Origin: Candidatus Omnitrophota bacterium
GTDB taxonomy: Bacteria; Hinthialibacterota; Hinthialibacteria; OLB16
Reading direction: 5' to 3'
DNA length: 64,000 nt
NCBI GenBank assembly: GCA_020632575.1
Contig: JACKFH010000006.1
Location: 10,117-74,116, forward strand
The notes below the pieces were generated by a model that had not been told where the DNA came from, searched no databases, and saw only the letters and a program-made list of their open reading frames with translations. How positions within the stretch are numbered: the stretch's first letter is position 1; each line of letters starts with the position of its first letter. The position numbers and the translations under genes are program-made. Below are positions 5,541-40,737 of this stretch, piece by piece.

Positions 5541-5576
5541 TCTCATTCGCCCGGAGCGACACCATTTTAAACTTCC

Positions 5577-6341: not shown

Positions 6342-6378
6342 CCTTTGAGGGTATCATCTTTCGGAACGATGAGGAGAT

Positions 6379-7828: not shown

Positions 7829-10800
7829 ATGACTTGCCGCCTCGTCTATCTTGCTGTCGTGGGATTCTTGATCTCGTTTCTTCAACTTTCAGCCGTATCA
7901 GAAACCCTATATGTCAACAGCGCAGTCACTGGCGGTTCCAACGATGGAACCAGTTGGGACAACGCCTTCGAGCACCTGCAGGACGCGCTGAGCGATGCGA
8001 CCTCAGGAGATGAAATCTGGGTCGCCGAGGGAGTCTACTATCCGGATGAGGGCGTCGGAATTTCGGACAATAGCCAATCCGCCTTGTTTATCCTCACGGA
8101 GGGGGTGGAGATCTACGGCGGATTTTCAAATGCCGCGACGGACGAATCCGACTTCGCCGGGAGAGATTTCGAGCAAAATGTGACCATCCTGAGTGGAGAC
8201 ATCGACGGAAACGACATGACCAATGCCGATGGGATTGTCACAGATGTCGGCGGGATTAGTGGCTTTAACTCGACGCATGTTGTTTCCGCTTTCGGCGCTT
8301 CCGAAGCGACTCTTCTCGATGGGTTCACGATTACCGCCGGAGACGCCAAGGGCGGCGGATTAGCCAGCACAGGCGGCGGGATGTGGAACTCGGGAGTCAC
8401 TTCGGTTCGTCTTCGAAATCTCACCTTCCAAGGAAACCGCGCCGCCGACCAAGGGGGCGGAATGGCCAATCATACGGGCGCCTCTCCGGATCTGGGCAAT
8501 GTGCGCTTCATTGGCAACGAGACTCAAGGTTCGGGTGGGGGACTCTCGAATCAGAACGACTGTTCTCCAGTCCTCGCGGAAGTGACTTTTGAAAACAACC
8601 ACTCGTCCTTTATCGCTGGAGCGATGTCCTGTTCGACTAACTGCCACCCGACTCTGGTCAACGTCTTGTTCGAGGGGAACACCTCCGATAACGATTGCGC
8701 TGGAATGTGGGTGCGATATAGCTGTCATCCATACTTGGAAAACGTCCGTTTTGTTGGAAATCGATCGGCCGCCAATTGCGGTGGGTTAATGGTTCAAGAT
8801 GACTCGAACCCGGTCCTTATCAACGTCGCCTTCTCTAACAACTCAGCAGGAGGATCGGGCAGTGGTGGGGGAATGTACAACAATCTCAACTCGAGTCCGA
8901 TTCTAACCAATGTCACCTTTTGGAATAACACGGCGGGCGTTAGCGGTGGCGGGATATACAACCACCAAAACAGCGACCCGATTTTCCAAAACTGCATCCT
9001 TTGGGAAAACACCGCTACTGGAAGCAATCAGATCCACAACGATAAATTCGATTGCGATCCCGTATTGAGGAACTGCATCGTCGAAGGGGGATGCCCTGAC
9101 GGCCAGACCGATTGCACCCTAAACCTGTACACTTTCGATCCTCTCTTCACCGATCCGGATGGTCCGGACGACACAAGCGGGACTGCCGACGACAATTTGC
9201 GCCTCCAATCCAACTCTCCCGCCATCGACGCCGGTGACAACAATTATGACCCGGATCCGAGCGCCTCACCGCCGGACAGCCTTCTGGATATCGACAAGGA
9301 CCTCGATCAAAAGGAGCGCGTGCTCGGAGTCGTCGATCTAGGATCTTACGAATTTCAAGGCATCGCAAACATCCGCGCCGGGGGAGGCAAAGAGACCATT
9401 CGACTGATTTGGGATCGCAGCCCTTTGGATGGCGTGTTGGGATATAACGTTTACCGCTCGGATGAAAGCAGCGATTTCACCTCTAAAGCCAAAGTCAATT
9501 CCGAAATCCTCATCGACCCAGTTTATGTAGATGGAGAGATGACTCCGTTGTCGCAAGGGGAGGATTATTATTATCAAATCGAGGTTTTAGCCGACGCGAC
9601 CACGGAGATTGTGTCTGGAATCAGCGGCGAAGCGAGTGGAACCGAGGGCGAGTATGTCATGATCCTCCCCGACATCCGGACAGCGACGACGGAATCGGTT
9701 GTCCGATTCCCCATATCGACGTTGAACGCACGCGGAATCACGGACAACGCTTTTTTCGTCACCATCAACTTCCCAGCCGCAATGGTCGACGCCACCCAAA
9801 TCGGATTTGAACAGACCGCACTCACCGAGGCTTATCAGGATATCAAAATCGCCACGAACACTGCTGTCTCTCCTCCGCGGGTGTCCATCTTCTCCGAGGT
9901 TGGCTCAAGCCAGAATATCGAACTCAATGGTGAGGGAACCTTTATCAATCTGACCTTCCCTCTTAAACCAGGATTATCGCTCAACCAAACAGGCGAGTTC
10001 AGTTTCGACAGCGTCCTGCTCAGAGATAACGCCAATACTCCGGTGAACACTGTCATGACAGACACTGGCGCGCTAATCGTGTCCAACCATTTCAAATTAG
10101 GCGATGTCAATGGAGATGCGAATGTCGACTTCGAGGACCGAGACGAAGTGAGCGAAATCGCGGTCGGCAAGCCGCTTGAGGAGGTCGCCCTTCAAAATCC
10201 GCCCTCCGTTCCGGACCCCGACGTGGACACCATCCGCTCGGCCGCCGATGTCAACGCCGACGGGACGATCGATGTCGCCGATGTGAATCTAATCCGTCAA
10301 AGATTTGGCACCAAGAGTGTTGAGCCGTTGAAGGCGGCGGCAGGAGCCCTCAAGCAAACCGTACTCGACACGTACACACTGGATCTGAAAGACGCCTACT
10401 TTGAAACGCTGCCTGGACAGGTCGATATGTTTGTGTCACTCGATCAACCGGCTTCGGACAACATAGGGATCGCGGGAACTTCTTTCACTCTGGCCTACGC
10501 TACAGACGAGGTCGAACTTATAGGCGCCGAACTTGTGGGCGGAGGCGCGACCTTCGATCAATTGGTGTACGACCAACGGGACTATTCTCGTGGATGGAAG
10601 CCAGGCCAAATCCGTTTGGTGGTCAGCGCAAACAGCAACAAGGCCGTGTCGGCGGATTTCGTGAAGATCAAGTTTCGGGAAGTGGATCCGGTCACTGAAA
10701 TGTCCACCAACCTCAGGTTTAGAACCGCAAAGATTGCTCGCCGGTCCGGCGAGGACATACGCTGGAACAACAACATCCAGTTGCTGGATGGACAGATTTT

Positions 10801-11452
10801 CTTCATGGCTCCAACCCCAACAGAAACTCCCACAGACACCCCGCAGGACACTCCGACGAACACTCACACCCCATCCGAGACCCCAACCCCAAGTCACACC
10901 CCGATGGAGCCGACCGATACTTTCACCCCGACATCAACCGAGACGCCTATTGAAATCCCCACCGACACCCACACTCCCACGCCAACCGAGACGCCCACGG
11001 ACACATCAGTTCGCGAAGGTCTTATCGCGATGGCGGACGCCTATCCCAATCCCGCGGTGAGCGGGCAGTTGGTAACGCTCGATGGAACGGCAAGCACGGG
11101 AGAGCAGGTCAATGGATATTCCTGGGAACAATTGGGTGACAATCCGATGGTGGTCATCACTGCGCCGAATAACGCAACAGCCACCTTCGTGGCCCCGATC
11201 GTATCGGTGACAGAGACCCTCACCTTTCAACTCACAATTTTTGGAGTGGGAGGCAGCCCTCCCTCGTTTCAAGATACAGAACAGGTGACGGTCATTGTTT
11301 TTCCTTTGGAACCCATCGATTTGGACCTGTTTGAAGACAATCGAATTGATTCCCGGGACCTCGTTCTATTCCTGGAGATGTTCGGGCCAAGCGGGCCTTT
11401 CAAATCTGAGGATATCTTTCGCTTTTCAATGGAATGGCTTTCAACCAGGTGA
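7829..11452 (+). CDS. Large secreted multidomain protein: N-terminal right-handed parallel beta-helix, internal double dockerin-like EF-hand module, cohesin-like domain, Thr/Pro-rich linker, PKD-like domain and a short dockerin-like tail
   Basis: Signal peptide. [34 protein letters not shown] beta-helix N-cap motif. Many GG..N turn repeats. [12 protein letters not shown] and [21 protein letters not shown] dockerin-like repeats. [20 protein letters not shown] cohesin-like segment. [30 protein letters not shown] linker. YSWEQ PKD-like segment. C-terminal [18 protein letters not shown]. Confidence 0.8.
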   Translation: [1207 protein letters not shown]

Positions 11453-12058
11453 AGGTGATCGGGGGGACGCTTCATCGGGGGTTTCGTCGTTCTGCGGGGC
11501 TTTAGGCGCCAGCTCAACCAATTGGGCCACAACTTCATCCCCATCCCATTTCGCGCCTCCCACATGGGAATCCAGAATTCTCCCTTCCGAATCCAGGATA
11601 TAGGTGGCGGGGATCCCTTCCGAGGTCCACTTCCGGGCATCCCCCGGACTCCGGAAATACATCGCTTCAGGGTACTCGCGTTTCTCGATAAACGGCCTAA
11701 TCTCCGAGGGTTCCTCGCGCGATACGAAAATCACCTCGACGTTTTTTCCCCGAGTCTTCTCTCCAAGCGAAACAAGACTCGGCATTTCGCTCACACAGGG
11801 TGGGCACCAGGTTGCCCAAAAATTCACTACAAGGACCTTCCCGCTCCAATCCGCGATCGACCGCGCCTCCCCATCGAGAGTCTCGAGGTCCGGGATCTTC
11901 ATTTCCGATCCTCTCGAAACCTCAATATCGGGAGTGGGAAAGAAAGCGCCTCCTGCGAATAACCTCACCAGGATGAATGACCCAAACAATACGAGGAACA
12001 GGACAACAAATGGGTTGAACTTATTTTCGGTCTTAGCGGCGTTCATCTTCTTACTCAT
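11441..12058 (-). CDS. TlpA-family thiol:disulfide oxidoreductase (thioredoxin fold), membrane-anchored
   Basis: WATWCPPC active-site motif and an N-terminal TM anchor. The start could be the TTG at 12079 (TTGA overlap with the upstream stop) or the ATG at 12058. Confidence 0.8.
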   Translation of the reverse strand: MSKKMNAAKTENKFNPFVVLFLVLFGSFILVRLFAGGAFFPTPDIEVSRGSEMKIPDLETLDGEARSIADWSGKVLVVNFWATWCPPCVSEMPSLVSLGEKTRGKNVEVIFVSREEPSEIRPFIEKREYPEAMYFRSPGDARKWTSEGIPATYILDSEGRILDSHVGGAKWDGDEVVAQLVELAPKAPQNDETPDEASPRSPSPG

Positions 12059-12075
12059 TTTGGCGTCCCGCCCAA

Positions 12076-13230
12076 TCAATGGAGATCGGAACGTGGGGAC
12101 AGATCGATCCCTTCCATTTGATGGACTCGGTTTGGAGTGAAAGGCGAGACATCAAAAGAGAGGGGCTTTCCGAGCATCGATTCCGCCACCACCCTTGCGG
12201 TAATTGGGGACAAAATGATCCCGCTACGATAATGACCCGTCGCGCAGAGGAAACCCTCCAGCCCCTCAAAGGGACCGATAAAAGGCAAGCCATCCAATGT
12301 TAGCGGCCGAAAACCATGCCAGACATCTTCCACAGAGGATTTGTCCAAACAGGGGAAGAATCCTTTCGCGCTGGTCAGCAGGTGCGCGATCCCCTCAAGC
12401 GTGTTCCGCCTTTGGAATCCAACCCACTCCTCGGTCGATCCCACCACGATCCGCCCTTCATCGCGCGGCGTGAGATAGGTCTTGCCGTAATGGACAATGT
12501 GTTCGACCGGTCTCGATCGGTCGTTTAAGAGGATAATCTGCCCCTTCACCGGAACGCCGGGGATCTCCCTTCCCAGAAGTTGCGAAAGCGCCTGACTCCA
12601 GGGGCCCGCCGCTAGGATGACCGTGTCCGCGAAGCATTCCTCCCGGTCGGTTTTCACCCCAACCACCCGGTCCCCCTCGGTGATAAAACCCAGAACTTCG
12701 GTGTGGGTTTCGAGTTTCGCCCCTTTTTTAAGCGCCGAGGTCAGCAAAGCCCGAGTAAACCAAGGGGTGCGAACTTGGGTGAATTTTGGGAAAAGGGCGC
12801 CATGCTCGATCTCATCGGTCAGGTTCGGTTCCATCCGTCGCAGGTCAGATGCCGACAAACGCTCCACCTCAATGCCATATTTGCGCTGCCACCCGAGAAA
12901 TTCCTCGGACTGAGCAATATCCTCCTCGGTCGGAAACAGGTCGATTCCACCAGTCTTCCGAAACCCGGAGTCGATGCCAGTCTCCTCCCGGAGTTCGGAG
13001 CAAAGGTCCTCGAACATTCCAAGGCTCTGTTGTTTGAAGGCGAGTAAGGGCCCCTCCTCAGCTTCGTTGGCCCGGGCAATCAATGCCCCGGCCGCGGCCC
13101 ATGAGGCCTCGCGGCACGGTTCGCCTCTCTCCAGAATCGTGGATGAAATTCCCTCTTGGGCGAGTTCCCGCGCGATCGCGCATCCGATCACTCCCCCTCC
13201 AACAATAAGCACCTCGGTTTGAATCGACAT
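12076..13230 (-). CDS. FAD-dependent oxidoreductase, DAO family (glycine oxidase ThiO-like)
   Basis: N-terminal VLIVGGGVIGCAIARELA dinucleotide-binding motif. ATG at 13230 has an upstream GGAG. The listed TTG at 13251 is less likely. Confidence 0.75.
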   Translation of the reverse strand: MSIQTEVLIVGGGVIGCAIARELAQEGISSTILERGEPCREASWAAAGALIARANEAEEGPLLAFKQQSLGMFEDLCSELREETGIDSGFRKTGGIDLFPTEEDIAQSEEFLGWQRKYGIEVERLSASDLRRMEPNLTDEIEHGALFPKFTQVRTPWFTRALLTSALKKGAKLETHTEVLGFITEGDRVVGVKTDREECFADTVILAAGPWSQALSQLLGREIPGVPVKGQIILLNDRSRPVEHIVHYGKTYLTPRDEGRIVVGSTEEWVGFQRRNTLEGIAHLLTSAKGFFPCLDKSSVEDVWHGFRPLTLDGLPFIGPFEGLEGFLCATGHYRSGIILSPITARVVAESMLGKPLSFDVSPFTPNRVHQMEGIDLSPRSDLH

Positions 13231-13365
13231 AACATGAGACTCCAATTTCAAGGGATGCCCCTATTTTAGGACGCTCACCGCTGATGGAGAACCCTTGCGC
13301 CTTCCGCCCTCCCCATTGTGGACCTCCAACTCCTCCCGCATAATCGAGAAAACTCGGAATTATAT

Positions 13366-14751
13366 ATGACGACAGACATGGAAGAATACGAACGAGAACC
13401 CTTGGATTCCTTTTCTCTGAAGCGGTCCCCCTTGGTCCTCCTCCTCTTGATCGTGGGGGTTGTGGTTCGTTTTTTTGTGATTGAATATTTCGAGAACTCC
13501 CCGCTGACCGACGCTGAGAAGATTTACACTCAGGTCGGTGAAAATTGGGTGGGAACCTATGGATTGTCCATCGATGGTCAACCCACCGCGGCGGTGATGC
13601 CCGCCTACCCAATCCTTCTAGGGCTTCAGAAATGGCTCTATTCCGATTCCTGGCAACCGATCATCTGGCTGCAGATCGTCTTAGGCGCCCTCTCCGCCTG
13701 GCTCGGAGCGCGCATTGCCTGGAAAGTTTATCGCCAACCCGTCGCCTTTTGGGCCGCTTTCCTTATCCTCCTTCTCCACCCCGCTTTTTGCGCGATGTGT
13801 GGGAAGATCGAGCCGCTTTGCATCGCCACCTTTCTCTTCTTGCTCGGCGTCTGGTTTCTCACCTTTGTCTTCCGACCGTCTTTTCACCTCTTTTATTTCC
13901 TCATGGCCGCCGGGACTTTTTCGTTGGCCCTCTACTTCTCTCTCAAAATTCTGGTCATCGTCCCGCTACTCGCTTTGGGCATCGGCTTTTTGGCTTACGA
14001 AAGAATGGTCGGAGTGCTCGGAGGGATCACTGTCTGCCTCGCTTTATTGGTCGCTTTGATGCCCTGGATGGGTCGCAACCTGATCGTCATGGGGACCTTT
14101 ATTCCCCTGACCACCAGCCTCCCCGGCCAGATCGAAACCGCGCTGGTCAACCGCAACGAGCCCAGCGCCGGACAGATTAAGATCTCCTCAGGCAAGGGAG
14201 AGCTCGATGACTACCAACGATCCCTCGATCGAATCCCAGAGGAAATCAAAAGAGTCGGAGTCGGAGATTGGTTCGGAACTCTGGCGGGCGCGTTCACCAG
14301 TTGGTGGAGCGATTACCCCGTTCTCTTTCAGAAACTCCACACAGGCTCGAACATACTGGTGAGGACTGTCTTGTTCACCTTGGGAATCACTCTGTTCTTT
14401 CTCGCCTTGATCGGAATTCTGCCGACTTTGAACATGGGACAAACTTGGGTCTTTCTCATCGCCCTCTGCGCTTTCGGATTCCAGATCTCTTTTCTCGCCT
14501 CCCCACCCTATTACCACCTTCTCGGTTTTCCACTCTTAATCCTGTTCACCGCGCGGGGAGTCTCACAGATCGCGGTCTTATTCACTAAAAACTGGCGGTC
14601 AACCGAACCCGAGTCCGGTCCCCCAAAACCGACCTGGAAGAGCGAAACCGAGTACGAATACGAGGATCCCTACCTCGAACCGATCAAGGGACCCCAAAAG
14701 GTTTTCGACGATTCGGAGGAGGAGGACTCGAAGCCCGGTCCGCTCTTCTGA
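13366..14751 (+). CDS. GT-C fold membrane glycosyltransferase, PMT_2/ArnT (GT39/GT83)-like
   Basis: About 11 TM helices. The first periplasmic loop carries a DAE...SIDGQPTAAVMPAYPILL motif resembling the ArnT/PMT DE-loop. The start is uncertain (ATG 13366 or 13378). Confidence 0.65.
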   Translation: MTTDMEEYEREPLDSFSLKRSPLVLLLLIVGVVVRFFVIEYFENSPLTDAEKIYTQVGENWVGTYGLSIDGQPTAAVMPAYPILLGLQKWLYSDSWQPIIWLQIVLGALSAWLGARIAWKVYRQPVAFWAAFLILLLHPAFCAMCGKIEPLCIATFLFLLGVWFLTFVFRPSFHLFYFLMAAGTFSLALYFSLKILVIVPLLALGIGFLAYERMVGVLGGITVCLALLVALMPWMGRNLIVMGTFIPLTTSLPGQIETALVNRNEPSAGQIKISSGKGELDDYQRSLDRIPEEIKRVGVGDWFGTLAGAFTSWWSDYPVLFQKLHTGSNILVRTVLFTLGITLFFLALIGILPTLNMGQTWVFLIALCAFGFQISFLASPPYYHLLGFPLLILFTARGVSQIAVLFTKNWRSTEPESGPPKPTWKSETEYEYEDPYLEPIKGPQKVFDDSEEEDSKPGPLF

Positions 14752-14755
14752 TCCG

Positions 14756-17029
14756 ATGAAGAATCGAGAAACGCTTCTCTCCCTGATCTTCCTGACAGTC
14801 GCATTATCCATCCTGTTCGCCCCGGTTCTCTTAAGGGGGGAGACCTTTGCTTTGGGCGATGTTCCCGACCAGTTCCTTCCCTGGCGGATCTTCACTGCCG
14901 AGGAAATCGCGGATGGCCGCATCCCCCTTTGGAATCCCTATACCTTTTGCGGATCCCCTTTCCTCGCCAACATGCAGTCCGCCGTCCTATATCCAATCGA
15001 CCGGGCGGTCGATCTCTTTTTCCAACCGGAACAAGGCGTCGGAATCGGAATGATCCTGCACCTCTTCCTGGGTGGGTTCTTTCTCTTTCTCCTTGCGCGT
15101 TCATTCGGCGCTTCGGAGCTCCCCTCGGGGATCGTCGCCATTGGATACGCCCTCGGTGGTTTCCACGCCATCCATTTCCTTGGAGGCAATCTGCTCACGA
15201 TCACATCGTCCATCTACCTCCCCGGGCACCTCTGGGTTGTTCACTCCCTACGAAAGCGAATCGAGGAGGGAAGGAGGATGGGTTATCTCCCCTTGATCGG
15301 AGTCCTGCTCGCCGTCCTCCAGGTCCTTTCAGGCCACGCCCAAATGACCTTTTACAACGCTTTCTTTGTGGGCGTGTTTTTCGTTTTGAATCTCATTCAA
15401 ATGAAATCTGATCGATCGAGACTCATCGGAATTCTCTCGGGGATCGCGCTCTGCGCGGCTCTCCTCGCCGCTCCGCAGATCCTTCCCACACTCGAATACT
15501 CGCGTCACGCTTCACGGACTGGGACTCTTCCATACCTTCCCGCAACCGAGTTTTCGTTTGGGTGGGAGTTTCTCGCCTCATTCCTCCTCCCCGAATATTT
15601 GGGAACCCGCGCCGACCTTTACACCCCGCTGCGGGCGGACACCTATTGGGGGGACTGGAAGAACTGGTCGGCCGTCTATATCGGCCTCCTCCCCGCCCTC
15701 GGTTTCCTTTCATTCTTCATCTTCCGTTCCCCCTCCCCGCCATGCGGGGAGGGGGCTAGAGGGAGGGGTTCCGAAATTGGTTGGAGGGGTTCCGCCCTCA
15801 CCCTCCTACTCCCACTGCTCCTCATCGCCCTCGTCCTTTCCCTTGGCCGCAACACCCCCATCTACTGGTATGTCCACCACTACGCCCCGCTCTTCGGCAA
15901 GTTCCGGGCGCCTTCGAAATTCCTCCCTGGAGTGATTGTCCCCTTCGCGGTGATTGGAGCGCTCGGCCTCAACTCCCTCTTCTTTCGATTGAGCCAAATC
16001 CGGATGTGTCACAAACGCGCCTTCGCATGGGGCGGAGTCGCCATCTTCGCTGGAGGGCTGCTGTTCGGGTATTCGATGAATTCAGACTTTCTCAGTACAC
16101 CCGTTGAGAAAGGGGAGGTTGTATGGCGGGAGGCTCTCCGGTTTCTCTCCATGCTCGCGATGACTGTCGGAGTCCTCCTTTTTTATGTCCGCTCTCAGCG
16201 CCCCAAGAAAACCGAATTCGACATCTGGCTCGCGCAGCTGGCGCTATTGCTTCTCATATCGTTCGATGTCGGAGCCTACTGCCAGAAGTATCTGGTCTTT
16301 GGATCGTACGACCGCATAAAAGTCTTTCCCTCGGAATGGGTCCGGTCCGAGATCGGCGCAAACGGTCGGCTCCTCGTCTCGCCGGAGGTTCCTCAACTCG
16401 ATAACTGTGTCCCGGACAGGATTCTGACCGCGGGCGGATACGATCCCTTTCAGGTGGGGGATTATGTGGACTACTTCCGCGAAAAGGGTCAATTCGCCGA
16501 GGGTCAGATCCCCGACAGCTGGTCCCCAACTCTCGGTTCCGCCGAGGAACTGGGTGTCACCCACGTGCTCACTACCCGGGCGCTCAATTCCCCCCTGGTC
16601 GAACCCGACAAAAAGAATGGCCCTTGGATGTTGTACCGGGTTCTCGAGACCCAACCCCTGATTCAATTCGTTCCAGATGATAAGGTGGAATCCGCAACCG
16701 ATGTCTCCCTCTCGTTCGGCTGGGATGTTGGGACGCTACGAGTATCAGGGACTGCGCCGACCGAGGGCCGCTTACTAATTCGCAACGTGTATATGCCCGG
16801 GTGGTATGCGACCATTCCAAGGGCTGAAGAGATCCCGGTCGAAATGTCACCGCCCTTCTGGCAATCCTTCCCGGTCAAGGCCGGCGATTTCGACTACTCA
16901 TTGGAGTACCGCCCCGATTCCTGGAAATGGGGAATCCGTTTTTTTTGGGTGGGGGTTTTTGTTTGTTGCATTTTTCTTTTCTATCTTCGATTCGACATCC
17001 GATCAGTTGGGGGCGACACCGGGAACTGA
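14756..17029 (+). CDS. YfhO-family membrane protein (GT-C-type glycosyltransferase that uses undecaprenyl-phosphate-linked sugar donors)
   Basis: 757 aa, poly-topic with a large C-terminal extracytoplasmic domain. It starts 4 nt after the preceding GT-C gene, so they form an operon. Confidence 0.65.
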   Translation: MKNRETLLSLIFLTVALSILFAPVLLRGETFALGDVPDQFLPWRIFTAEEIADGRIPLWNPYTFCGSPFLANMQSAVLYPIDRAVDLFFQPEQGVGIGMILHLFLGGFFLFLLARSFGASELPSGIVAIGYALGGFHAIHFLGGNLLTITSSIYLPGHLWVVHSLRKRIEEGRRMGYLPLIGVLLAVLQVLSGHAQMTFYNAFFVGVFFVLNLIQMKSDRSRLIGILSGIALCAALLAAPQILPTLEYSRHASRTGTLPYLPATEFSFGWEFLASFLLPEYLGTRADLYTPLRADTYWGDWKNWSAVYIGLLPALGFLSFFIFRSPSPPCGEGARGRGSEIGWRGSALTLLLPLLLIALVLSLGRNTPIYWYVHHYAPLFGKFRAPSKFLPGVIVPFAVIGALGLNSLFFRLSQIRMCHKRAFAWGGVAIFAGGLLFGYSMNSDFLSTPVEKGEVVWREALRFLSMLAMTVGVLLFYVRSQRPKKTEFDIWLAQLALLLLISFDVGAYCQKYLVFGSYDRIKVFPSEWVRSEIGANGRLLVSPEVPQLDNCVPDRILTAGGYDPFQVGDYVDYFREKGQFAEGQIPDSWSPTLGSAEELGVTHVLTTRALNSPLVEPDKKNGPWMLYRVLETQPLIQFVPDDKVESATDVSLSFGWDVGTLRVSGTAPTEGRLLIRNVYMPGWYATIPRAEEIPVEMSPPFWQSFPVKAGDFDYSLEYRPDSWKWGIRFFWVGVFVCCIFLFYLRFDIRSVGGDTGN

Positions 17030-17121
17030 AAAAACTATCGAGATCCTGCTAGACCTGCTCCCTATATCCGATATAGAATACTTTGACATGAAACGATATC
17101 TTGGCTAGTCGAGGATCCCTA

Positions 17122-18945
17122 ATGCCTACGCCGATCCCGCGGTGTTTCATCTGGCTCTCAGTGGCGTGTCTCTCCTTCGGAACGCCCTCTCAGGCGAGGA
17201 CTCTAGTGGTTCGCCAAAACGGAACCGGAAACGCGACCACAATCAACCAAGCCTTGGAGATGCTCGACTACGACGACGGCGAGGCGGATCTCATCCTGAT
17301 CGGCCCGGGTGAATATGACGAACAACTCGCTCTGAAGGGGAACGCGGGAGTCGATTCCCAAATGTTCCCTAACACTTTTAACCTGACTCCAACCACTCTC
17401 GAGAGAGCCTTCCAAAGTCACCCAGACCCCCTGGCGCTTCGCGGAGAAGACCCCAATAATCCGCCGGTTTTCCTCGTTCGGGACGCATCGATTCAAACCT
17501 ATGGCTTCTTTCCCTCCGATAGGTTTAATTCTTTCGAATCGCAAATCGTTCACTGCGGGAATGGGATCGCGATCGAAAATATCGAAATACGGCACACCCT
17601 TGTGAACGGCTATGCTCTCAATGGTCAAGCGGCTGGAATCGAATATAAGGATTGCCTCTTCACGAATGGCCTGAGTTCATCTGACTTGGGTGAGGATTTC
17701 TTTGACGCGAGCAACAATGTGGAAATCACCTCGATGATCAATCCCGAAATTTCGGCGGACAATGGTTACCTCTTCGAAAACTGTCTAATGGATGGAAAGA
17801 GTCTTGTCGATGAATCGTTTCACGATTATGCCTTCAGCTATTTCCATGGGTACGATTTGGACGGCGCCCTAATCGGCAGAGAGGCAGTCGGCGGAATCGT
17901 ATACCAGGGATGTGTGGTTAAGAATTGGGACGATTCGGTCCACTGGTTGCGCGGCCGGGAGGTGCTCGCGCGCGGTTTGGGCCTGAGCATGGTGCAGGAT
18001 TGCTTTTTCGCTAACGTTCGTAATCCGGTTAGATGGGATGGCAACCAAGGTCCACGAGTCTTCAACCGAAACGTTGTTTACTTTTCGGAGGAACCTTGGA
18101 TACAAGTCCGCGAACGATCTGGAGGCAGACCAAGCGAGGTTTACATCGCGAACAGCATCTTTTCGGGCAGCATCGACCCAATCGGGGGTGTCCGTATCGA
18201 CCTGCGCGAGGAAAACATATCCCCCTCGAATGATTCCGAGGTTTGGATTGTCAACAACACCTTTCACGATTATTCCGACTACGCCATCCATGTCGAAGGA
18301 TCTTTTCCACGCGCCGCGGGAATGATCGCAAACAACATCTTTCAAGGCAGTGACGAAATGCCCCAGGGAATCGCCATTGGGATCGACGATCCAGCGACGA
18401 ATGTCTCGATCCTAACCAATCTCTTCTCTAACAATCTGGTCAACGTTCAAGGAATCCCCGATGTGGAGGAAGGCTCTTGCGATCACGACCCAGAATTCAA
18501 TTCCACGGAGATCGTAATACCGGAAGACCCGATTGGATTTGGGAGTTACCCTCCCGCTCGACAGAACTTCGAGCCATTCGCGTATCCTCTGTATAACTCC
18601 GGGACTCTAGGTGTTTATGCTGAAGTGGCTCATTACGCGGGAAATCTCGATGTTGACCAGACTCACAGTCGTTACCAAATTTGCGGCTTCGACGAAACTT
18701 ATGAAAGCTACATCCATTGCCCAGGCGTGGGGGCGCAGGGAATAACCGGTCCCGATTTCTTTCCTTTTAATCGCAGTGAACCCGGGCATGGAAAGACTTT
18801 CGATTCGGACTTTCTCTGTGAGCCAACGCCGATTTCCGTCCCGACCTTCGTTAGTGAACGATCCGATGTGAACGTCGACGGTGTCGTGAACGAGACGGAT
18901 CTCCTGCTTCTCCTACAGGATTGGGGGCGGGTCAGCGGTCCCTAA
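17122..18945 (+). CDS. Secreted right-handed beta-helix protein with C-terminal dockerin-like module
   Basis: Signal peptide MPTPIPRCFIWLSVACLSFGTPSQA. The C-terminus SDVNVDGVVNETDLLLLLQDWG matches a dockerin calcium-binding repeat. Confidence 0.75.
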   Translation: MPTPIPRCFIWLSVACLSFGTPSQARTLVVRQNGTGNATTINQALEMLDYDDGEADLILIGPGEYDEQLALKGNAGVDSQMFPNTFNLTPTTLERAFQSHPDPLALRGEDPNNPPVFLVRDASIQTYGFFPSDRFNSFESQIVHCGNGIAIENIEIRHTLVNGYALNGQAAGIEYKDCLFTNGLSSSDLGEDFFDASNNVEITSMINPEISADNGYLFENCLMDGKSLVDESFHDYAFSYFHGYDLDGALIGREAVGGIVYQGCVVKNWDDSVHWLRGREVLARGLGLSMVQDCFFANVRNPVRWDGNQGPRVFNRNVVYFSEEPWIQVRERSGGRPSEVYIANSIFSGSIDPIGGVRIDLREENISPSNDSEVWIVNNTFHDYSDYAIHVEGSFPRAAGMIANNIFQGSDEMPQGIAIGIDDPATNVSILTNLFSNNLVNVQGIPDVEEGSCDHDPEFNSTEIVIPEDPIGFGSYPPARQNFEPFAYPLYNSGTLGVYAEVAHYAGNLDVDQTHSRYQICGFDETYESYIHCPGVGAQGITGPDFFPFNRSEPGHGKTFDSDFLCEPTPISVPTFVSERSDVNVDGVVNETDLLLLLQDWGRVSGP

Positions 18946-18996
18946 GTTCGTTCTTCCCTCCCCATTTTGATCTTTTCCGCTATATTGAAACTCCGA

Positions 18997-20265
18997 ATGA
19001 ACACTCAGAGAAAACCGCGTATCGCGTTTATCGATTTGACTTTCAACTGGCCGCCGGTGGGGGGATGCTGGGTCGATCTCATGCAGATCTGCTCGCGCCT
19101 TCAGAGCCGAGGTTTCGAGACCAAACTCTTTGTCCCGGTCTGGACCGACTATTATCCGCGCGGGCGTATCGAATCCGATCTCCCTTTTCCGGTCGAGAAG
19201 ATCCATTTCAGCCGTTTCACCTTCAACGCTTACCACCTGCGAAAACGATTTGGCAAAGCGGTCGGCGAGTGGAAACCCGACTATGTTTTCCTCGGCGATG
19301 GGTACCATCTGAAACCGCATCTGCTCGACCATTTCTCAAAGAAGGTCCCGACTTATTGCCGGCTCTACGCCTACGATGTCAATTGCCTGAACCTTCATTA
19401 CTGGCTCTATGACGAGGGACGAATTTGTGACGGCGGTTTTTTGACCGACCCCGACCGATGTCACCGCTGCTGGCACCCGGGGAAATCCTTTTATAAGCGC
19501 GCGGCGAAGATTGCCCTGGGTTATCCCGACCAGCATCCTCAACTTCATTTTTCGCAGGAGTACATGAGTTCCCTCGCCTTCACGGGCTGGTATCGAAAGC
19601 GGCTCCCCGAGTGGTTGGCTCGAGCTGAGGGGTTGATTGTGTACAACGAGTTCACCGCGGACTTCTTCCGTCCGATCACCGACAAGATCCATGTCATCCC
19701 CTCCGGAATCGACACCGCCCGATTCCAACCGGTTGAGAAACAGAACAGAGAGCGGCCTGTCCTATTCGTTCCGGGCCGAGTCAATGACGAACTCAAAGGT
19801 TTTTCGACTGTGTTCGAGGCCTGCAAGAAACTCCGCGAAGAGGGGTTCGATTTCGAGGTCCGAATCACCGCCGCTTTCGACATGCATTTCGAGGAGAAAT
19901 GGATCGTCAACCTTGGGTGGGTCCCTCAAGAAAAAGTCCCAAGCCTGTACGATGAAGTCGACATCGCCATTGTTCCCAGTCTCTGGGTCGAGCCCTTCGG
20001 CATCACCACCCTTGAGGCGATGGCTTCCGGAGTGCCGGTGGTTGGCTCCAAGATTGGGGGCATTGCTGAGACCCTGGTCGATGGAGAGACCGGGCTGCAC
20101 TATCCATCGGGCGATTCAGGCCGATTGGCAGAATCCCTCAAGAAACTCCTGGAGTCTCCCGACTTCCGCAAACAATTTGGAGAGTCGGGGAGAAAACGCG
20201 CGGTCGAGGTCTACGATTGGGAGCGAGTGGTCGATAACCACTACATGGACCTCTTTCGATCATGA
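18997..20265 (+). CDS. Glycosyltransferase family 4 (GT-B) with a Cys-rich insertion
   Basis: C-terminal Glycos_transf_1 signature (EPFGITTLEAMASGVPVVGSKIGGIAETLVDGETG). The insert CDGGFLTDPDRCHRCWH is a possible Zn site. Confidence 0.8.
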   Translation: MNTQRKPRIAFIDLTFNWPPVGGCWVDLMQICSRLQSRGFETKLFVPVWTDYYPRGRIESDLPFPVEKIHFSRFTFNAYHLRKRFGKAVGEWKPDYVFLGDGYHLKPHLLDHFSKKVPTYCRLYAYDVNCLNLHYWLYDEGRICDGGFLTDPDRCHRCWHPGKSFYKRAAKIALGYPDQHPQLHFSQEYMSSLAFTGWYRKRLPEWLARAEGLIVYNEFTADFFRPITDKIHVIPSGIDTARFQPVEKQNRERPVLFVPGRVNDELKGFSTVFEACKKLREEGFDFEVRITAAFDMHFEEKWIVNLGWVPQEKVPSLYDEVDIAIVPSLWVEPFGITTLEAMASGVPVVGSKIGGIAETLVDGETGLHYPSGDSGRLAESLKKLLESPDFRKQFGESGRKRAVEVYDWERVVDNHYMDLFRS

Positions 20266-21953
20266 AAATTCTGGGGATCAGCGAACTCGATAACGACGCC
20301 GGAGCCTGTGCGCTCATCGATGGGAAAGTGGCGGCCGCCGCCAATGAGGAACGGTTCTCCCGTATCAAACAGCACGCGGGCTTTCCTTTCCAGGCAGTCG
20401 AATGGATTTGCAAACACACTGGAATCGAACCCAAGGATTTCGACGCGATCGCGATCGCCAAACCGGAAGCCGAGGAGGAAATCCGTCTCGTTCGAAAACC
20501 CGTTCTCGAATATGGTTGGAACCAAGAACGACGTTCCTCCTTCCTGGACAAGAAACTGACACAAGCCGCCTTTCGATTCTATCGATTCCCCAAACACAAA
20601 AGCTCGGTGCTTGACCTCAATGCGGAACTAGAGACCTGGCTTCGACAATCCGACATCGACCGATCCAAGATCTATCGAGTCGATCATCACCGCGCTCATG
20701 CTCTTTCCGCCCAAGTCGCGAGCGGTTTCGACGCCTGCCTCGCGGTCACCTGCGATGGTCAGGGGGCCGGGGTGACCGGCACGGTTTGGAAGGGAGAGGG
20801 AATCCGCCTCCATCCAATTCAGAAAATCTATCTCCCCCATTCCATGGGAAATTTTTACGCCGCCGCCACCAAAGCCCTTGGATTCATTCCGAACCGTCAC
20901 GAGGGAAAGGTGACCGGACTCGCCGCTTACGCCGAACCGGCCGAGGAAGATCTGGCCACGCTCCGTCGGATCGCTTGGGCTGAGGGCGGCGCCTATTACG
21001 CACCCTGTGTCTACGGAGCCTACCCGAAGATCAAAAGATTTCTCGACAATGCGGGCAGGGAGCGTTTCGCCGCCACCTTTCAAAAGGTGCTCGAGGAGAC
21101 TGTGGTCGATTGGGTTCGGTTCCATGTCGAGCAGACAGGACTGAGCCGAGTGGTCCTGTCTGGGGGAGTCTTCGCGAATGTGAAACTCAACCAGCGAATC
21201 GAGGAGATCGAGGGAGTCGAGGAGGTCTTTGTCTTCCCGGGCATGGCCGATGGCGGTCTCGGTCACGGCGCCGCGGTCGGCTGGGATTGGGACTGTGGAG
21301 AGAACGAAACAGTCCCCGGACTCGACCATGTTTATTGGGGGCCGGAACCTACTGGCGAGGAATGCGCTCGATCAATCCGAGACTCGGGTTTGGAGGCCAC
21401 CCAGCCCGAAGATCTGGTCGGTGAGACTGCGCGGTTACTAGCGGAGGGAAAAGTGGTGGCGGTCTGCCGAGGCGCTCTCGAGTTCGGCCCGCGCGCGCTC
21501 GGCCACCGCAGCATCCTCTACCAACCGACCGACCCCTCGGTTAACGACTGGTTGAATGTTCAACTCCGTCGGACCGAGTTCATGCCCTTCGCCCCGGTCA
21601 CCCGGATGGAGAATGCCTCGAGGTGTTATCCGAAACTGTCCTCGAAATCGACCGCGAGGTTCATGACCATCACCACGGATTGTTCCCAGGAAATGGCAAA
21701 GAAATGTCCGGCGGTGACTCATGTCGATGGCACGGCCCGACCGCAACTCATCGACCGTGAGACCGATCCTTTTTACTACGATGTCTTAAAGAGGTATGAG
21801 GAAGCGACCGGCAATCCCAGTCTGATCAACACCAGTTTCAACCTGCACGAGGAACCGATTGTGGCGACTCCAAGTGAAGCGATCCAAGCGGCCAAACAAG
21901 CCTCTTTGAACTATCTGATCCTCGCCGACACGCTGATTCGAATTGTCGATTAG
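20262..21953 (+). CDS. Carbamoyltransferase, NodU/CmcH family
   Basis: N-terminal MKILGIS..DAGACALIDGKV ASKHA-like fold plus a C-terminal carbamoyltransferase domain. ATGA overlap with the GT4 gene. Confidence 0.8.
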   Translation: MKILGISELDNDAGACALIDGKVAAAANEERFSRIKQHAGFPFQAVEWICKHTGIEPKDFDAIAIAKPEAEEEIRLVRKPVLEYGWNQERRSSFLDKKLTQAAFRFYRFPKHKSSVLDLNAELETWLRQSDIDRSKIYRVDHHRAHALSAQVASGFDACLAVTCDGQGAGVTGTVWKGEGIRLHPIQKIYLPHSMGNFYAAATKALGFIPNRHEGKVTGLAAYAEPAEEDLATLRRIAWAEGGAYYAPCVYGAYPKIKRFLDNAGRERFAATFQKVLEETVVDWVRFHVEQTGLSRVVLSGGVFANVKLNQRIEEIEGVEEVFVFPGMADGGLGHGAAVGWDWDCGENETVPGLDHVYWGPEPTGEECARSIRDSGLEATQPEDLVGETARLLAEGKVVAVCRGALEFGPRALGHRSILYQPTDPSVNDWLNVQLRRTEFMPFAPVTRMENASRCYPKLSSKSTARFMTITTDCSQEMAKKCPAVTHVDGTARPQLIDRETDPFYYDVLKRYEEATGNPSLINTSFNLHEEPIVATPSEAIQAAKQASLNYLILADTLIRIVD

Positions 21954-24067
21954 ACCGGGTTGCCACTCTCCAGCTCCAGCCTGGAAGCGGACACTTTCGG
22001 TTTCTTCTCAATAGTCTCGCGCAAAACCCCAATGAGTTCCCGGTAAGTGTAAGGCTTTTGAATGAAGCCGAGGCCATCCCGGTCCTCGAGATCGATCAGG
22101 TACGCGTCATGATTGAAACCGCTGGTGAATATGACCCGGATGTCGGGATCGATCTCCTTCATCTTCCGGTAAGTCTCGACTCCATTGAGGCCGGGCATGG
22201 TCCAGTCCAGAAGAACCGCCTCGAACCGAGCTGGGTGCTCCTCGAGGATTCGAATCCCCTCTCTTCCGCTCGAGGCCACAGTCACATCGAATCCCGACCT
22301 AAAGAGCATGGCATTCGCGATGTTTCGAACGCTCGCTTCGTCATCGACAACCAGCACTTGACCCGTCCCTTTCCAGGCGGGGTCGAAGGTGGCCTGAGTC
22401 GGCCTCGATGGGATCGGCGTCGTGGACACCGGAAACAGCAAGAGAACAGTGGTTCCATACCCTTTTTCGCTCGCCACTTTGATCACGCCATGGTGGGCGC
22501 GGACCACTCCTAAAACCATCGACATTCCTAGGCCACGCTTCTCGGGTTTGGTGGTGAAGAAGGGGTCGAACATTCTGGACCGAGTCTCCCGATCCATTCC
22601 CGCGCCTGTGTCCGAAACCTCTACGAAAACATACTCCCCCTCCTCATAAGATCCACAGTAATGGGCTTCCGCTAGATACCGTCGACTGCATCTGAGCGAT
22701 CCCGTTCGAATGGTGATCACCGCATCCTCATTCTCGATGGATTCCGCGGCGTTTGTCACGAGATTGACCACCGCCTGCTGGATCTGATCGACATCCCCCT
22801 CTACGGGGGGCGGAGATTCTTCGAAAAACAATTCTAAGACCGCTCGATCCGAGGCCGAAATTTTAAGCATTTGATCGATGCTTCGCACGACATCCGTCAG
22901 ATTCACGGACACACTGCGAGACTTCCCTTTCCCTGAGAATGCGAGCATCTGATTGCACAAATCCGACATCCTCTCACCTGCGGTTTGGATCTCCCGAATC
23001 ATTTGGCGCGGCCATTGGTCGGGGCCAAGTTCGCTCAGAATCATGTCTGAGTTTCCCATGATGGTCAGAAGCTGATTGTTGAGATCATGCGCGACTCCGC
23101 CCGCGAAGATTCCGAGACTCTCGAGTTTCTGAGCAACTTGAATCTGCCCGACCAGTTCCTCTCGTTCCTCCTCGGCCAAGATCCGGTCGGTCAAATCCAG
23201 GATCGTCGCGATTAATCGGCTCGGTCGACCCTCCTTGTCGAATAGAATAATCCCTTCACTCTCAATGTGACGGACTGTCCCATCCGCCGGGATAACTCGA
23301 TATCGAATGGGTTGGAGATTGAGTTCGTTGATGGCGTCTTCGCGCGCTGCTTTGACTTTCTCACGGTCATCGGGGTGGATTCGCCTCTCCATTTTTAACG
23401 CCAAGTCCTCCCCACGGTCCTTGGGGGACAACCCGTGTATCCGAAGCGCCTCGTCAGAAATTTGGAAGGATCCCGAGTCGAAATCCCATTCCCAGCTTCC
23501 GAGATGAGCAATCTCCTGCGAACGACTCAATAGAGTTTGGCTCCGACGAAGGTCTTCCTGCGATCGAATTCTTTCCTCGATTTCGTTCTTTAGTTCCTCT
23601 CGTTCTTTGGCAAGTAGATCCTTGATGGTGTTTGCATTGACCGTCGAAAAATAAAAGGCGGCGAGAATCAGAAACATCCCGGACCAAATAAGGATGTCCT
23701 GCAGAACCACATCCCAACTATTCCCACCGCCGAACAGAGGTTGTGTCTCAATATTTGTTAGCACGATGGCGCAGTTGATAGTCTGAGAGAGAATCAGGAA
23801 GGACCCGCCGACCAAGGAGAGGATTCGAATCGACCAAACCTGGTGGACTTTCCATAGCAAGAAAATCGATGCGACCGCGAAAACAGTCACGGCTGTTAAA
23901 CTGAGAGAGGCTTTGGCTATTTCGTATACCCACTCATGGTTGGGTAGGTTTCGAGAGAGGAGCGACAAACCGACGGCAAGAAGGAAGGCAAAAATGGAGA
24001 TCTGCCTGAGACGGAGATTTTCACCCCATGCGCCGTCATCAATGGAAAGTGAACGGGACGACTCCAA
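21950..24067 (-). CDS. Hybrid sensor histidine kinase/response regulator (multi-TM sensor, PAS, HisKA, HATPase_c, REC)
   Basis: TTG start with GAGGAGG 8 nt upstream. H-box AHDLNNQL, followed by an ATPase domain and a C-terminal receiver domain. Confidence 0.85.
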   Translation of the reverse strand: MESSRSLSIDDGAWGENLRLRQISIFAFLLAVGLSLLSRNLPNHEWVYEIAKASLSLTAVTVFAVASIFLLWKVHQVWSIRILSLVGGSFLILSQTINCAIVLTNIETQPLFGGGNSWDVVLQDILIWSGMFLILAAFYFSTVNANTIKDLLAKEREELKNEIEERIRSQEDLRRSQTLLSRSQEIAHLGSWEWDFDSGSFQISDEALRIHGLSPKDRGEDLALKMERRIHPDDREKVKAAREDAINELNLQPIRYRVIPADGTVRHIESEGIILFDKEGRPSRLIATILDLTDRILAEEEREELVGQIQVAQKLESLGIFAGGVAHDLNNQLLTIMGNSDMILSELGPDQWPRQMIREIQTAGERMSDLCNQMLAFSGKGKSRSVSVNLTDVVRSIDQMLKISASDRAVLELFFEESPPPVEGDVDQIQQAVVNLVTNAAESIENEDAVITIRTGSLRCSRRYLAEAHYCGSYEEGEYVFVEVSDTGAGMDRETRSRMFDPFFTTKPEKRGLGMSMVLGVVRAHHGVIKVASEKGYGTTVLLLFPVSTTPIPSRPTQATFDPAWKGTGQVLVVDDEASVRNIANAMLFRSGFDVTVASSGREGIRILEEHPARFEAVLLDWTMPGLNGVETYRKMKEIDPDIRVIFTSGFNHDAYLIDLEDRDGLGFIQKPYTYRELIGVLRETIEKKPKVSASRLELESGNPV

Positions 24068-24165: not shown

Positions 24166-25404
24166 TCATTCCTCCGGTTTTCGGTTGACTTTGGTCTCCT
24201 TCCCACCCTGAATTCTTTTGATTTTTTCAAGGCTTTTCTGGACAGAAGATGGGTCTGGAAGAACTTCGAAAGCGATTTGAAACTGCCGACTCTCGCCGGG
24301 CTTGAGCTTGGGCACTCGCCCTTTCTCCCTCTCGATCTGACGGTTGTGGGGAAAGCTGGTTCCCGGTTCGATTCCAGTCACATATCCCGCATCCAACGCG
24401 GGAAGATTCTTCCATTGGGTCAGGAATGGCAGTTCCTCCACCGAAAAGGACATCGAGACCCCGCGATTCCCGCTCGCGTTCTTCAGCATTACTTGAGTGA
24501 GATCGTCGTCACCCGCGTAGAGTTCCATACAATAGACCTGCTCCACGAACCCCGGAGTGGGCCCATCGTAAACCGCGGCCCGGTCGATCGATTGAGCCGC
24601 GTGCTCGTTGAACGGGGTGACCTCTCGAATGGGAGCGACAAATTCGGCGCCCTTCTCCAATAGCGGTGGTCCGAAATTCGTGTGGTAAAGCATCTGGAAC
24701 TCTTGATCGTCCGCCCCCTCGTTGACCAACCGATCGGTGACGGTGAGCTGCAGTGATCCAGGCGTCGTGGAAATCTCGGTCCAGAGTTCAAGTTGCGGCC
24801 CATAGAACATCCGCTCGTCGACCCGCCCACGCACTCGAATCGTATGTGGCGGTTCCTCATCGATGACCACCTCCACCTCCGAGGCCGGGATATTGGCCAC
24901 CTTGCCATGGAGCGTGAGGTCCATGACCGCCTCATCGCCGACATTATTGATGAACTTGTCCTCACCGGGATGGCCAACCCATTCGAGACCGCATCGAACC
25001 ATCCATTCGTTGAACCCTTCGAGCCAGCCTAATCCACCCCGTGAACTCAGATTGATAAAGGAGGGGTGAACAATCTCTTTGACGGGCGAATTCCACCCAA
25101 GGCGCAGGTCTCCCGAAACCACTTCGTAAATCCCCATTCCTCGGGTTGGGATCATTGTGAAGCGGAGTTTGCCGTTGTCCACATGGATGACATCGACTCC
25201 CTCCTGCTTGCCACCATGGAGAACGTCCTTTCGGATGGAGACCGAGGAGTCCGTTTTGAAGGGAAATTCGGAGCCGGAAAGACTCCACTCCTCGACCCGG
25301 ATGTTCTTCTCCACACTAATTAAGAGCTGACGGAAATCCTCCGCGTGGGACTTCGGTATCGTCAGGAATACGAACAGCACGATGATCGCGTGAGTCTTCA
25401 TCAT
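24166..25404 (-). CDS. DUF4432 / aldose-1-epimerase-like secreted protein
   Basis: Signal peptide MKTHAIIVLFVFLTIPKSHA. All-beta composition typical of the galactose mutarotase-like fold. Confidence 0.5.
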   Translation of the reverse strand: MMKTHAIIVLFVFLTIPKSHAEDFRQLLISVEKNIRVEEWSLSGSEFPFKTDSSVSIRKDVLHGGKQEGVDVIHVDNGKLRFTMIPTRGMGIYEVVSGDLRLGWNSPVKEIVHPSFINLSSRGGLGWLEGFNEWMVRCGLEWVGHPGEDKFINNVGDEAVMDLTLHGKVANIPASEVEVVIDEEPPHTIRVRGRVDERMFYGPQLELWTEISTTPGSLQLTVTDRLVNEGADDQEFQMLYHTNFGPPLLEKGAEFVAPIREVTPFNEHAAQSIDRAAVYDGPTPGFVEQVYCMELYAGDDDLTQVMLKNASGNRGVSMSFSVEELPFLTQWKNLPALDAGYVTGIEPGTSFPHNRQIEREKGRVPKLKPGESRQFQIAFEVLPDPSSVQKSLEKIKRIQGGKETKVNRKPEE

Positions 25405-25429
25405 CTTCACCTCCATGTCGGTTAAGCGT

Positions 25430-40724: not shown

Positions 40725-40737
40725 GACCGGGAAATTC

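Follow-up and report, generated by a model that had tools for sequence, protein, structure and literature searches.

Gene arrangement at the locus

We analyzed a 64,000-nucleotide (nt) stretch from the genome of a Candidatus Omnitrophota bacterium (assembly GCA_020632575.1, contig JACKFH010000006.1, positions 10,117 to 74,116; hereafter the window), with a focus on five consecutive plus-strand genes at 13366-21953. The first two encode polytopic membrane proteins: open reading frame 1 (ORF1, 13366-14751), a 461-residue putative GT-C glycosyltransferase that is divergent and PMT_2/GT39-like, and ORF2 (14756-17029), a 757-residue protein that we assign as a divergent YfhO-like GT-C. Downstream lie ORF3 (17122-18945), encoding a beta-helix-like secreted protein of 607 residues, a gene for a cytoplasmic GT4-family glycosyltransferase with a GT-B fold (18997-20265, 422 residues), and a gene for an O-carbamoyltransferase of the NodU/CmcH/TobZ type (20262-21953, 563 residues). 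The solid finding at this locus is that 13366-17029 holds a conserved, translationally coupled GT-C pair whose members come from two different families.

ORF1 starts with the ATG at 13366; a longer alternative, a GTG-initiated frame from 13318, is disfavored because homologs are 458-461 residues long. Only 4 nt separate the ORF1 stop codon from the ORF2 start. The most likely start of ORF3 is the ATG at 17122 rather than the TTG at 17101, which leaves a 92-nt spacer after ORF2 that contains a weak promoter-like site. The GT4 gene begins with the ATG at 18997, 51 nt beyond ORF3, and its TGA stop codon overlaps the ATG of the carbamoyltransferase gene by 4 nt as ATGA. The best database matches are hypothetical proteins from Candidatus Omnitrophica metagenome-assembled genomes (MAGs) at 97-99% identity. 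An earlier reading of this DNA (the original prediction) had located all of these genes where we find them, with small coordinate corrections. It had also described the two GT-C genes as forming an operon, in agreement with their 4-nt spacer and their adjacency in related loci, and the GT4 and carbamoyltransferase genes as translationally coupled, in agreement with the ATGA overlap.

Family assignment of the GT-C pair

The original prediction called ORF1 a PMT-related and ORF2 a YfhO-related GT-C protein and named the profiles PF13231 (PMT_2) and PF09586 (YfhO) as a check on these calls. Neither profile recognizes its protein: ORF1 had no Pfam match even at E=10, including PF13231 PMT_2 and PMT, ORF2 had none at the same threshold, including PF09586, and both lacked NCBIfam matches. 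Because these direct scans were empty, the GT-C family assignment of both proteins rests on remote homology, and it required profile searches, transitive homology and structure prediction.

For ORF1, a word-indexed search retrieved 5 relatives, and a profile built from these yielded 2439 matches among 1.84 billion representative sequences. Beyond the ORF1 family proper, these matches are proteins of 390-450 residues with E-values of 1e-27 to 1e-11. PF13231 PMT_2 was found in 38 of 50 aligned members, a set in which 10 rows belong to the ORF1 family itself, and PF02366 in 13 of the 50; where the nearest relatives have been named, the annotation is 'glycosyltransferase family 39 protein'. Aligning the 14-member ORF1 family to 30 PMT_2-bearing proteins with hhalign gave a probability of 100% and an E-value of 3.9e-42 over 385 columns. 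ORF1 and the PMT_2 subfamily have in common the motifs PTA..(M/R)P.YP and PW..RN and the residues Q103, P139 and P389. Invariant within the ORF1 family are E51 in the first hydrophilic loop, the PTA..MP.YP motif and W234-R237-N238. E51, present in all 14 members, aligns one position away from an Asp that is at least 90% conserved in the PMT_2 subfamily. The PMT relationship proposed for ORF1 thus holds through remote profile homology to PMT_2/GT39 proteins.

Structure prediction added little for this protein. An AlphaFold2 model from a 6-sequence alignment had a mean predicted local distance difference test (pLDDT) of 45.8 and was unusable; a Foldseek search with this low-confidence model returned nothing at E<=0.001, and 8 of its 9 top matches were GT-C-type folds (PIG-U, PglB, STT3, Pmt1/2). 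Sequence searches of the PDB with ORF1, ORF2 and PMT_2-subfamily profiles gave no meaningful match. At E<=1, searches of the PDB with the ORF1 profile and with that of its PMT_2 relatives detected no chain of ArnT or Pmt, and the ORF1 family therefore does not group with ArnT; the original prediction had named a grouping of the GT-C proteins with the lipid A-modifying ArnT enzymes as evidence that would speak against it. For the 390-450-residue PMT_2 subfamily with the PW..RN motif, we found no characterized member and no solved relative detectable by sequence.

The ORF1 family also has a conserved acidic C-terminal tail (approximately residues 409-461, nt 14590-14751) that ends ...LEPI..P...GP[LI]F. 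Within it, P439 and P459 are invariant across the 14 sequences, down to 28% identity, and the tail could be a docking motif. We looked for PMT_2-YfhO fusions among the long matches and found only PMT_2 tandems and a PMT_2-DUF748/YhdP fusion.

For ORF2, a phmmer search returned 307 relatives. The closest 17, at 42-98% identity, carry no Pfam domain and no YfhO match, and from ~27% identity down nearly all relatives are PF09586 YfhO proteins, with 50-98% query coverage and E-values of 1e-42 to 1e-17. The best PF09586-bearing relative (P0023) matched at 1.3e-42 with 92% coverage, and among 56 aligned homologs, 37 have a YfhO match (best 5e-30). The AlphaFold2 model from this 56-sequence alignment reached a pLDDT of 93.5 and a predicted template modeling score (pTM) of 0.94. 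It comprises an N-terminal polytopic module, a beta-rich domain at ~511-720 that would be extracytoplasmic, and a terminal transmembrane helix at 721-749. Foldseek placed AftD, ArnT, PglB, AglB, STT3, DPY19 and AftA at the top of the PDB matches with probabilities of 0.99-1.0. ALG3 and Pmt4 were also among the matches, the whole GT-C set scoring 0.95-1.0 and proteins outside it at most 0.2. All nine are GT-C enzymes that depend on polyprenyl-phosphate sugars. In the model, D35 directly follows the first transmembrane helix, and it is conserved in 44 of the 56 aligned sequences (79%). Together, the homology to PF09586 proteins, the restriction of the fold matches to GT-C enzymes and the position of D35 identify ORF2 as a predicted divergent YfhO-like GT-C glycosyltransferase. 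The YfhO relationship claimed for it is upheld by full-length homology to PF09586 proteins and by the GT-C fold of the model.

Conservation of the ORF1-ORF2 cassette

We sampled related loci from contigs encoding ORF2 homologs and from GTDB species genomes scanned with the ORF1 family profile. An ORF1-like gene lies directly upstream of an ORF2-like gene in L001/L002, L003/L013, L004, L005/L011, L006, L008, L009, L010 and L012; in all, this makes about 10 independent Omnitrophota/Hinthialibacterota loci in which the two genes lie side by side or overlap. Where genes were called, in the six loci L001, L003, L004, L005, L006 and L008, the junction varies between a gap of 11 nt and an overlap of 4 nt. 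The cassette is present in an Omnitrophota MAG (L009) and in Candidatus Hinthialibacteria OLB16 (L013), whose host NCBI puts in a separate phylum. ORF1 identity between clades is only 29-35%; the L009 protein is 72% identical to that of the window. L007 has ORF2 without ORF1, and L014 has ORF1 apparently without ORF2. YfhO homologs at ~30% identity have no adjacent ORF1-like gene; in L019 a PMT_2 gene lies 1.5 kilobases (kb) away, and in L018 there is none. The adjacency of ORF1 and ORF2 exceeds chance.

L009 comes from Omnitrophota OFTM149, the closest species-level genome. Its YfhO-like gene (4887-7192) is split into two overlapping frames, reflecting either a frameshift pseudogene or an assembly error. 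L009 shares with the window an upstream DAO gene (74% identity). A second beta-helix protein of the window (629 residues; the window regions concerned are 31556-33445 and 30168-31487) is 74% identical to the protein that adjoins the DAO gene and cassette of L009 (region 24-3116), and the window holds two DAO paralogs. The different position of the 74%-identical beta-helix gene and the two DAO paralogs point to rearrangement around the cassette between the two genomes.

A GH141-like gene often follows the pair

In six independent lineages (L003/13, L005/11, L008, L009, L010 and L012), the next gene after the pair encodes a secreted right-handed beta-helix protein of ~690 residues. It lies at 12283-14358 in L003, 4188-6263 in L005, 7152-9140 in L009, 5218-7302 in L010 and 5444-7528 in L012, and in L003 it overlaps the stop codon of the YfhO-like gene. 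The encoded proteins are 50-100% identical to one another and match the parallel beta-helix structure PDB 9RX2 (1.9e-77) and the GH141 enzyme BT_1002 (5.7e-36). This GH141-like glycosidase has no Ser/Thr/Pro tract.

We considered ORF3 of the window as a diverged copy of this gene and found no similarity by BLASTP or hhalign; nor did it match the beta-helix/dockerin protein of L007. ORF3 has a signal-peptide-like N-terminus, only weak NosD, Beta_helix and Pectinesterase signals, and a dockerin-like C-terminus that matches 2y3n at 5.8e-5. From these sequence comparisons, ORF3 is predicted to be lineage-specific and outside the conserved cassette.

The GT4 and carbamoyltransferase genes

The GT4 protein matches Glycos_transf_1 (2.2e-29) and Glyco_trans_1_4 (1.1e-24), with all NCBIfam equivalogs far below their cut-offs. 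The carbamoyltransferase has both domains of its family, Carbam_trans_N (2.6e-40) and Carbam_trans_C (7e-56), and its PDB matches are the O-carbamoyltransferases GdmN (4e-66), NovN (8e-65) and TobZ (5e-54). Its description as NodU-type in the original prediction is right as to family membership and not as to NodU itself, for which the score was 105.9 bits against a cut-off of 1000 bits (NCBIfam NF041651).

None of the three window genes behind the pair, those for the beta-helix protein, the GT4 and the carbamoyltransferase, has a counterpart in any related cassette locus, including L009. The sole close relative of the carbamoyltransferase that we retrieved (L017, 65% identity) came from a metagenome scan of carbamoyltransferase neighborhoods and lies on a short, 4.8-kb contig that has no GT-C gene and gives no information on the upstream gene. 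In an Acidobacteriota MAG (L015, 9755-18997), a remote PMT_2-like gene, 27% identical to ORF1, lies 6 kb from a carbamoyltransferase gene whose product is 33% identical to that of the window. This is the only other case of such proximity that we saw, and it is probably coincidental.

Thr/Pro-rich linkers in nearby secreted proteins

Upstream of the pair, the gene at 7829-11452 (plus strand) encodes a 1207-residue secreted protein with a signal peptide, PMP-type beta-helix repeats, dockerin- and cohesin-like segments, a Thr/Pro-rich linker and a PKD domain. The linker, noted in the original prediction as 60 residues long, is indeed present and spans 67 residues (994-1060; nt 10808-11008, plus strand; APTPTETPTDTPQDTPTNTHTPSETPTPSHTP...). 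Two minus-strand genes, for a thioredoxin-like protein (11441-12079) and a DAO-type flavin adenine dinucleotide (FAD) oxidoreductase (12076-13251), separate this gene from ORF1. The 1207-residue protein is a candidate acceptor for the pair only by inference.

Across the sampled loci, the window, L001 and L007 have Thr/Pro-linker proteins at 0.5-4.8 kb from the pair (1.9 kb upstream in the window), and L003 has a short Thr/Pro tract. Overall, such proteins occur near the pair in 3-4 of ~12 loci. None was found within 10 kb in L004, L005/11, L008, L009, L010 or L012. These counts have no background to be set against, since the sampling stayed almost wholly within 10 kb of a pair.

Dockerin-like EF-hand segments are present on two secreted beta-helix proteins (7829-11452 and 17122-18945), and cohesin-like domains occur in the 1207-residue protein (weak) and in a 574-residue protein at 57578-59302 (1.9e-10). 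These segments suggest a possible cohesin-dockerin-type surface assembly in this Omnitrophota genome.

A distant GtrB-type GT2

The window encodes a GtrB/ArnC-type GT2 of 310 residues at 39792-40724 on the minus strand. It matches Glycos_transf_2 (6.8e-28), has two C-terminal transmembrane helices, and aligns over its full length with Synechocystis GtrB sll0501 (7.5e-55) and also with ArnC (1e-26), which confirms its earlier description as GtrB-like. No GtrA-type flippase was present among the window ORFs scanned, a set in which frames shorter than ~150 residues were not covered systematically. The original prediction held that this GT2 completes a three-component logic in the style of CsbB/YfhO. 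We find no support for this: the GT2 gene is unlinked to the pair in the window and in seven annotated loci, and the scanned ORFs include no GtrA-type flippase.

The operon of the GT2 (in the region 34159-42438, minus strand) further encodes three S-adenosylmethionine-dependent methyltransferases, a hexapeptide acyltransferase, a GFO/IDH/MocA oxidoreductase and a 303-residue protein of unknown function, and looks like a separate pathway for a lipid-linked modified sugar. Upstream in this region, a further gene encodes a 566-residue polytopic membrane protein whose family is rare: a search of 5.8 billion proteins gave 14 matches. In some relatives, a DCC1-like thiol-disulfide oxidoreductase domain (PF04134) is fused to the protein. 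We considered this protein as the GT2's own GT-C partner and found no support; its family is not recognizably GT-C.

Other genes in the window

Upstream of the 1207-residue protein, the ORF listing and domain scan, which also supplied the other upstream annotations, place a PQQ_2/BamB-like propeller gene at 6379-7623 (plus strand). On the far side of the five genes, a hybrid histidine kinase gene (21950-24067, minus strand) is convergent to the carbamoyltransferase gene. A 550-residue protein with PhoD-like phosphatase and 3-keto-disaccharide hydrolase domains (25430-27082, minus strand) is encoded next to a DUF4432 protein (24166-25416). The region 49598-57456 (minus strand) encodes a 1294-residue TPR-secretin fusion, a 501-residue protein of unknown function and a 668-residue PilM/FtsA-like protein, a pilus or secretion cluster, and a sigma-54 activator gene lies downstream of it at 59415-60473.

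A model for the pair and competing explanations

Our best explanation, which we hold tentatively and rate somewhat below an even chance, is that the five genes comprise two unrelated units: a GT-C pair acting on an envelope glycan, and a lineage-specific second unit. ORF1 and ORF2 would each work at the outer face of the inner membrane, moving a sugar from a polyprenyl-phosphate-sugar donor to an extracytoplasmic acceptor. The donor would be synthesized in the cytoplasm by a GtrB-type GT2 and then flipped; the enzyme at 39792-40724 is a possible donor synthase for the pair. The first-loop acids, E51 of ORF1 and D35 of ORF2, may act as catalytic base or metal ligand. The tight coupling of the two genes suggests that their products would work in successive steps, or as a complex, on the same acceptor. 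This acceptor may be a cell-envelope glycan or glycolipid, such as lipopolysaccharide (LPS) or another surface polysaccharide, which we slightly favor because the ancestral and most frequent partner of the cassette is the secreted GH141-like glycosidase; taken by itself, a glycan or glycolipid acceptor seems to us possible without being probable. Two further considerations point the same way: the association with linker proteins is not conserved, and LPS, teichoic acids or wall polysaccharides are what most characterized bacterial enzymes of this kind modify. The second unit (17122-21953) would consist of the secreted beta-helix/dockerin protein and the cytoplasmic GT4/O-carbamoyltransferase pair, the latter probably building a carbamoylated glycan or glycoconjugate independently of ORF1 and ORF2. 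We hold this unit separate because it has no homologs in the related loci and because the 92-nt gap before it contains a promoter-like site.

Several observations weigh against this model. The GH141-like gene is missing from the window and from L001, L004, L006 and L007, and is therefore not an obligatory partner. The window, L001 (two proteins) and L007 encode large secreted proteins with strong Thr/Pro tracts within 5 kb of the pair. The GT2 lies 22.8 kb from the pair, on the other strand and in its own operon, and no Glycos_transf_2 gene was found within 10 kb of the pair in the seven related loci with Pfam annotation. The structural model of ORF1 is unreliable, its putative catalytic acid E51 is offset by one position in the alignment from the conserved Asp of the PMT_2 subfamily, and the conserved gene order could partly reflect shared ancestry.

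The Thr/Pro tracts bear on a competing view, put forward in the original prediction, in which ORF1 and ORF2 use polyprenyl-phosphate sugars to O-glycosylate Ser/Thr residues in disordered, Thr/Pro-rich linkers of proteins that are secreted or at the surface, for example that at 7829-11452. The acceptors of characterized YfhO enzymes are teichoic acids, cell-wall polymers of Gram-positive bacteria (PMC5836110). Such polymers are not expected in Omnitrophota. Both GT-C families offer precedents for protein acceptors. The YfhO-family enzymes PgtC2 and PgfM1 O-glycosylate disordered Ser/Thr-rich regions in streptococci (PMC12041528), and the Pgf cluster (PgfS, PgfM1, PgfE and PgfM2) places two YfhO-type GT-Cs beside their adhesin substrates (PMC5856776). 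In Caldicellulosiruptor bescii, the GT39 enzyme Cbes_1864 glycosylates Thr/Pro linkers in secreted enzymes with several domains, and its gene lies close to that of its substrate, celA (PMC6151902). The failure of ORF1 to group with ArnT and the proximity of linker proteins in three loci fit this view as well. However, most related loci have no such protein within 10 kb, the sampled sequence gives no power to detect enrichment, and the conserved partner is a glycosidase that lacks a Ser/Thr/Pro tract. Most characterized bacterial GT-C enzymes that use polyprenyl-phosphate monosaccharides have glycans or lipids as acceptors. The proposal thus has precedents in both families but no conserved linker association, and is no better supported than an envelope glycan acceptor; we regard it as possible and on the doubtful side. 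A more specific version, in which a heterotypic complex of the PMT_2-like and YfhO-like GT-Cs carries out two-step O-glycosylation of Thr/Pro linkers on secreted beta-helix/dockerin surface proteins, would be rather unlikely. The two proteins could also form an obligate hetero-complex with a single catalytic subunit, the other binding donor or acceptor or stabilizing its partner, loosely as in Pmt1-Pmt2 and accessory GT-C-fold subunits. Strict adjacency and translational coupling despite an ORF1 identity of only 29-35% between clades, the conserved ORF1 tail and the shifted ORF1 acid are consistent with this arrangement, but both proteins keep a first-loop acid and their family-invariant motifs, and each gene is found without the other (ORF2 in L007, ORF1 apparently in L014), so that we consider it improbable. 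Least likely, in our view, is that the five genes and the distant GT2 form one pathway that adds a carbamoylated sugar to secreted beta-helix proteins, as the original prediction also proposed. The genes share a strand, with gaps of 4, 92 and 51 nt and then a 4-nt overlap, no convincing terminator intervenes, and the remote PMT_2-like locus L015 has a carbamoyltransferase gene 6 kb off. Yet none of the related cassette loci, not even L009 as the closest, has ORF3, the GT4 or the carbamoyltransferase, and the carbamoyltransferase relative in L017 is on a contig without a GT-C gene. GT-C donors come from GT2 enzymes and not from GT4, no step joins a cytoplasmic O-carbamoyltransferase to a polyprenyl-phosphate monosaccharide, and the GT2 gene belongs to a different operon at a distance of 22.8 kb. 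The one-pathway reading is unsupported because the neighbors are missing from related loci and because no annotated related locus has a nearby GT2; only the ORF1-ORF2 pair is conserved. The original prediction read the remote homologies correctly, but joined the conserved pair to lineage-specific neighbors and a distant GT2 without support.

Under the model of an envelope glycan acceptor that we prefer, the GH141-like partner points to a new module for synthesis and trimming. If Thr/Pro linkers are the acceptor instead, the range of YfhO/PMT-type protein O-glycosylation would widen beyond Firmicutes and Actinobacteria to include candidate phyla that are presumably diderm. The heterotypic complex, if real, would give uncultured Omnitrophota/Hinthialibacterota their first protein O-glycosylation system, and PMT_2-like and YfhO-like GT-C families would be functionally paired for the first time. 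In either case, a two-GT-C cassette that standard domain models miss would mark a lineage-specific step of envelope or protein glycosylation and adds two deep-branching subfamilies to PMT_2/GT39 and YfhO. The conserved residues E51 and W234-R237-N238 of ORF1 and D35 of ORF2 are direct targets for mutagenesis. The GT4 and carbamoyltransferase should not be annotated as part of the system of the GT-C pair.

Comparison with known systems

We found nothing in the literature on the surface glycobiology of uncultured Omnitrophota/Hinthialibacterota. The pair is a variant of known transmembrane glycosylation systems, and what is new is a heterotypic combination of PMT_2-like and YfhO-like proteins with no linked GT2, with a frequent GH141-like partner, and in uncultured candidate phyla. 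A close parallel for ORF2 is found in the three-component systems for teichoic acid glycosylation, CsbB/YfhO and GtlA/GtlB/GtcA of Bacillus and Listeria, in which a YfhO-type GT-C is predicted to use a C55-P-sugar from a GtrB/CsbB-type GT2 (PMC5836110, PMC8035078), and a GtrB-type GT2 is likewise encoded in the window. In the window, however, this GT2 is unlinked, no GtrA/GtcA flippase is found among the scanned ORFs, an additional PMT_2-like GT-C is coupled to ORF2, and ORF2 itself falls below the Pfam YfhO threshold. The host also differs, being an Omnitrophota MAG from which, as far as we are aware, teichoic acids are not expected.

The GtrB/PgtC2 and Pgf systems also rely on YfhO-family GT-Cs, and Pgf resembles the window in having two GT-C genes in one cluster, next to its substrates; the Thr/Pro-linker protein of the window lies 1.9 kb upstream of the pair. 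They differ in that the window pair comes from different families, its cassette has no GT2 or epimerase, and its association with the proposed substrate is not conserved. Bacterial GT39 Pmt enzymes (actinobacterial Pmt and Cbes_1864; PMC6151902) are related to ORF1 at the profile level, but ORF1 is shorter, at 461 residues, and has no detectable similarity to solved Pmt chains. ArnC/ArnT and Gtr-type O-antigen glucosylation likewise combine a GT2 polyprenyl-phosphate sugar synthase with a GT-C acting on an envelope glycolipid, and ArnT is among the top fold matches of ORF2; unlike in ArnC/ArnT, no arn-type sugar-modification genes lie beside the pair, and ORF1 and its relatives have no sequence match to ArnT. 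Finally, the conserved third gene of the related loci matches both the GH141 enzyme BT_1002 (PDB 5MQP) and 9RX2, whereas the window is without that gene and carries another beta-helix protein in the same position.

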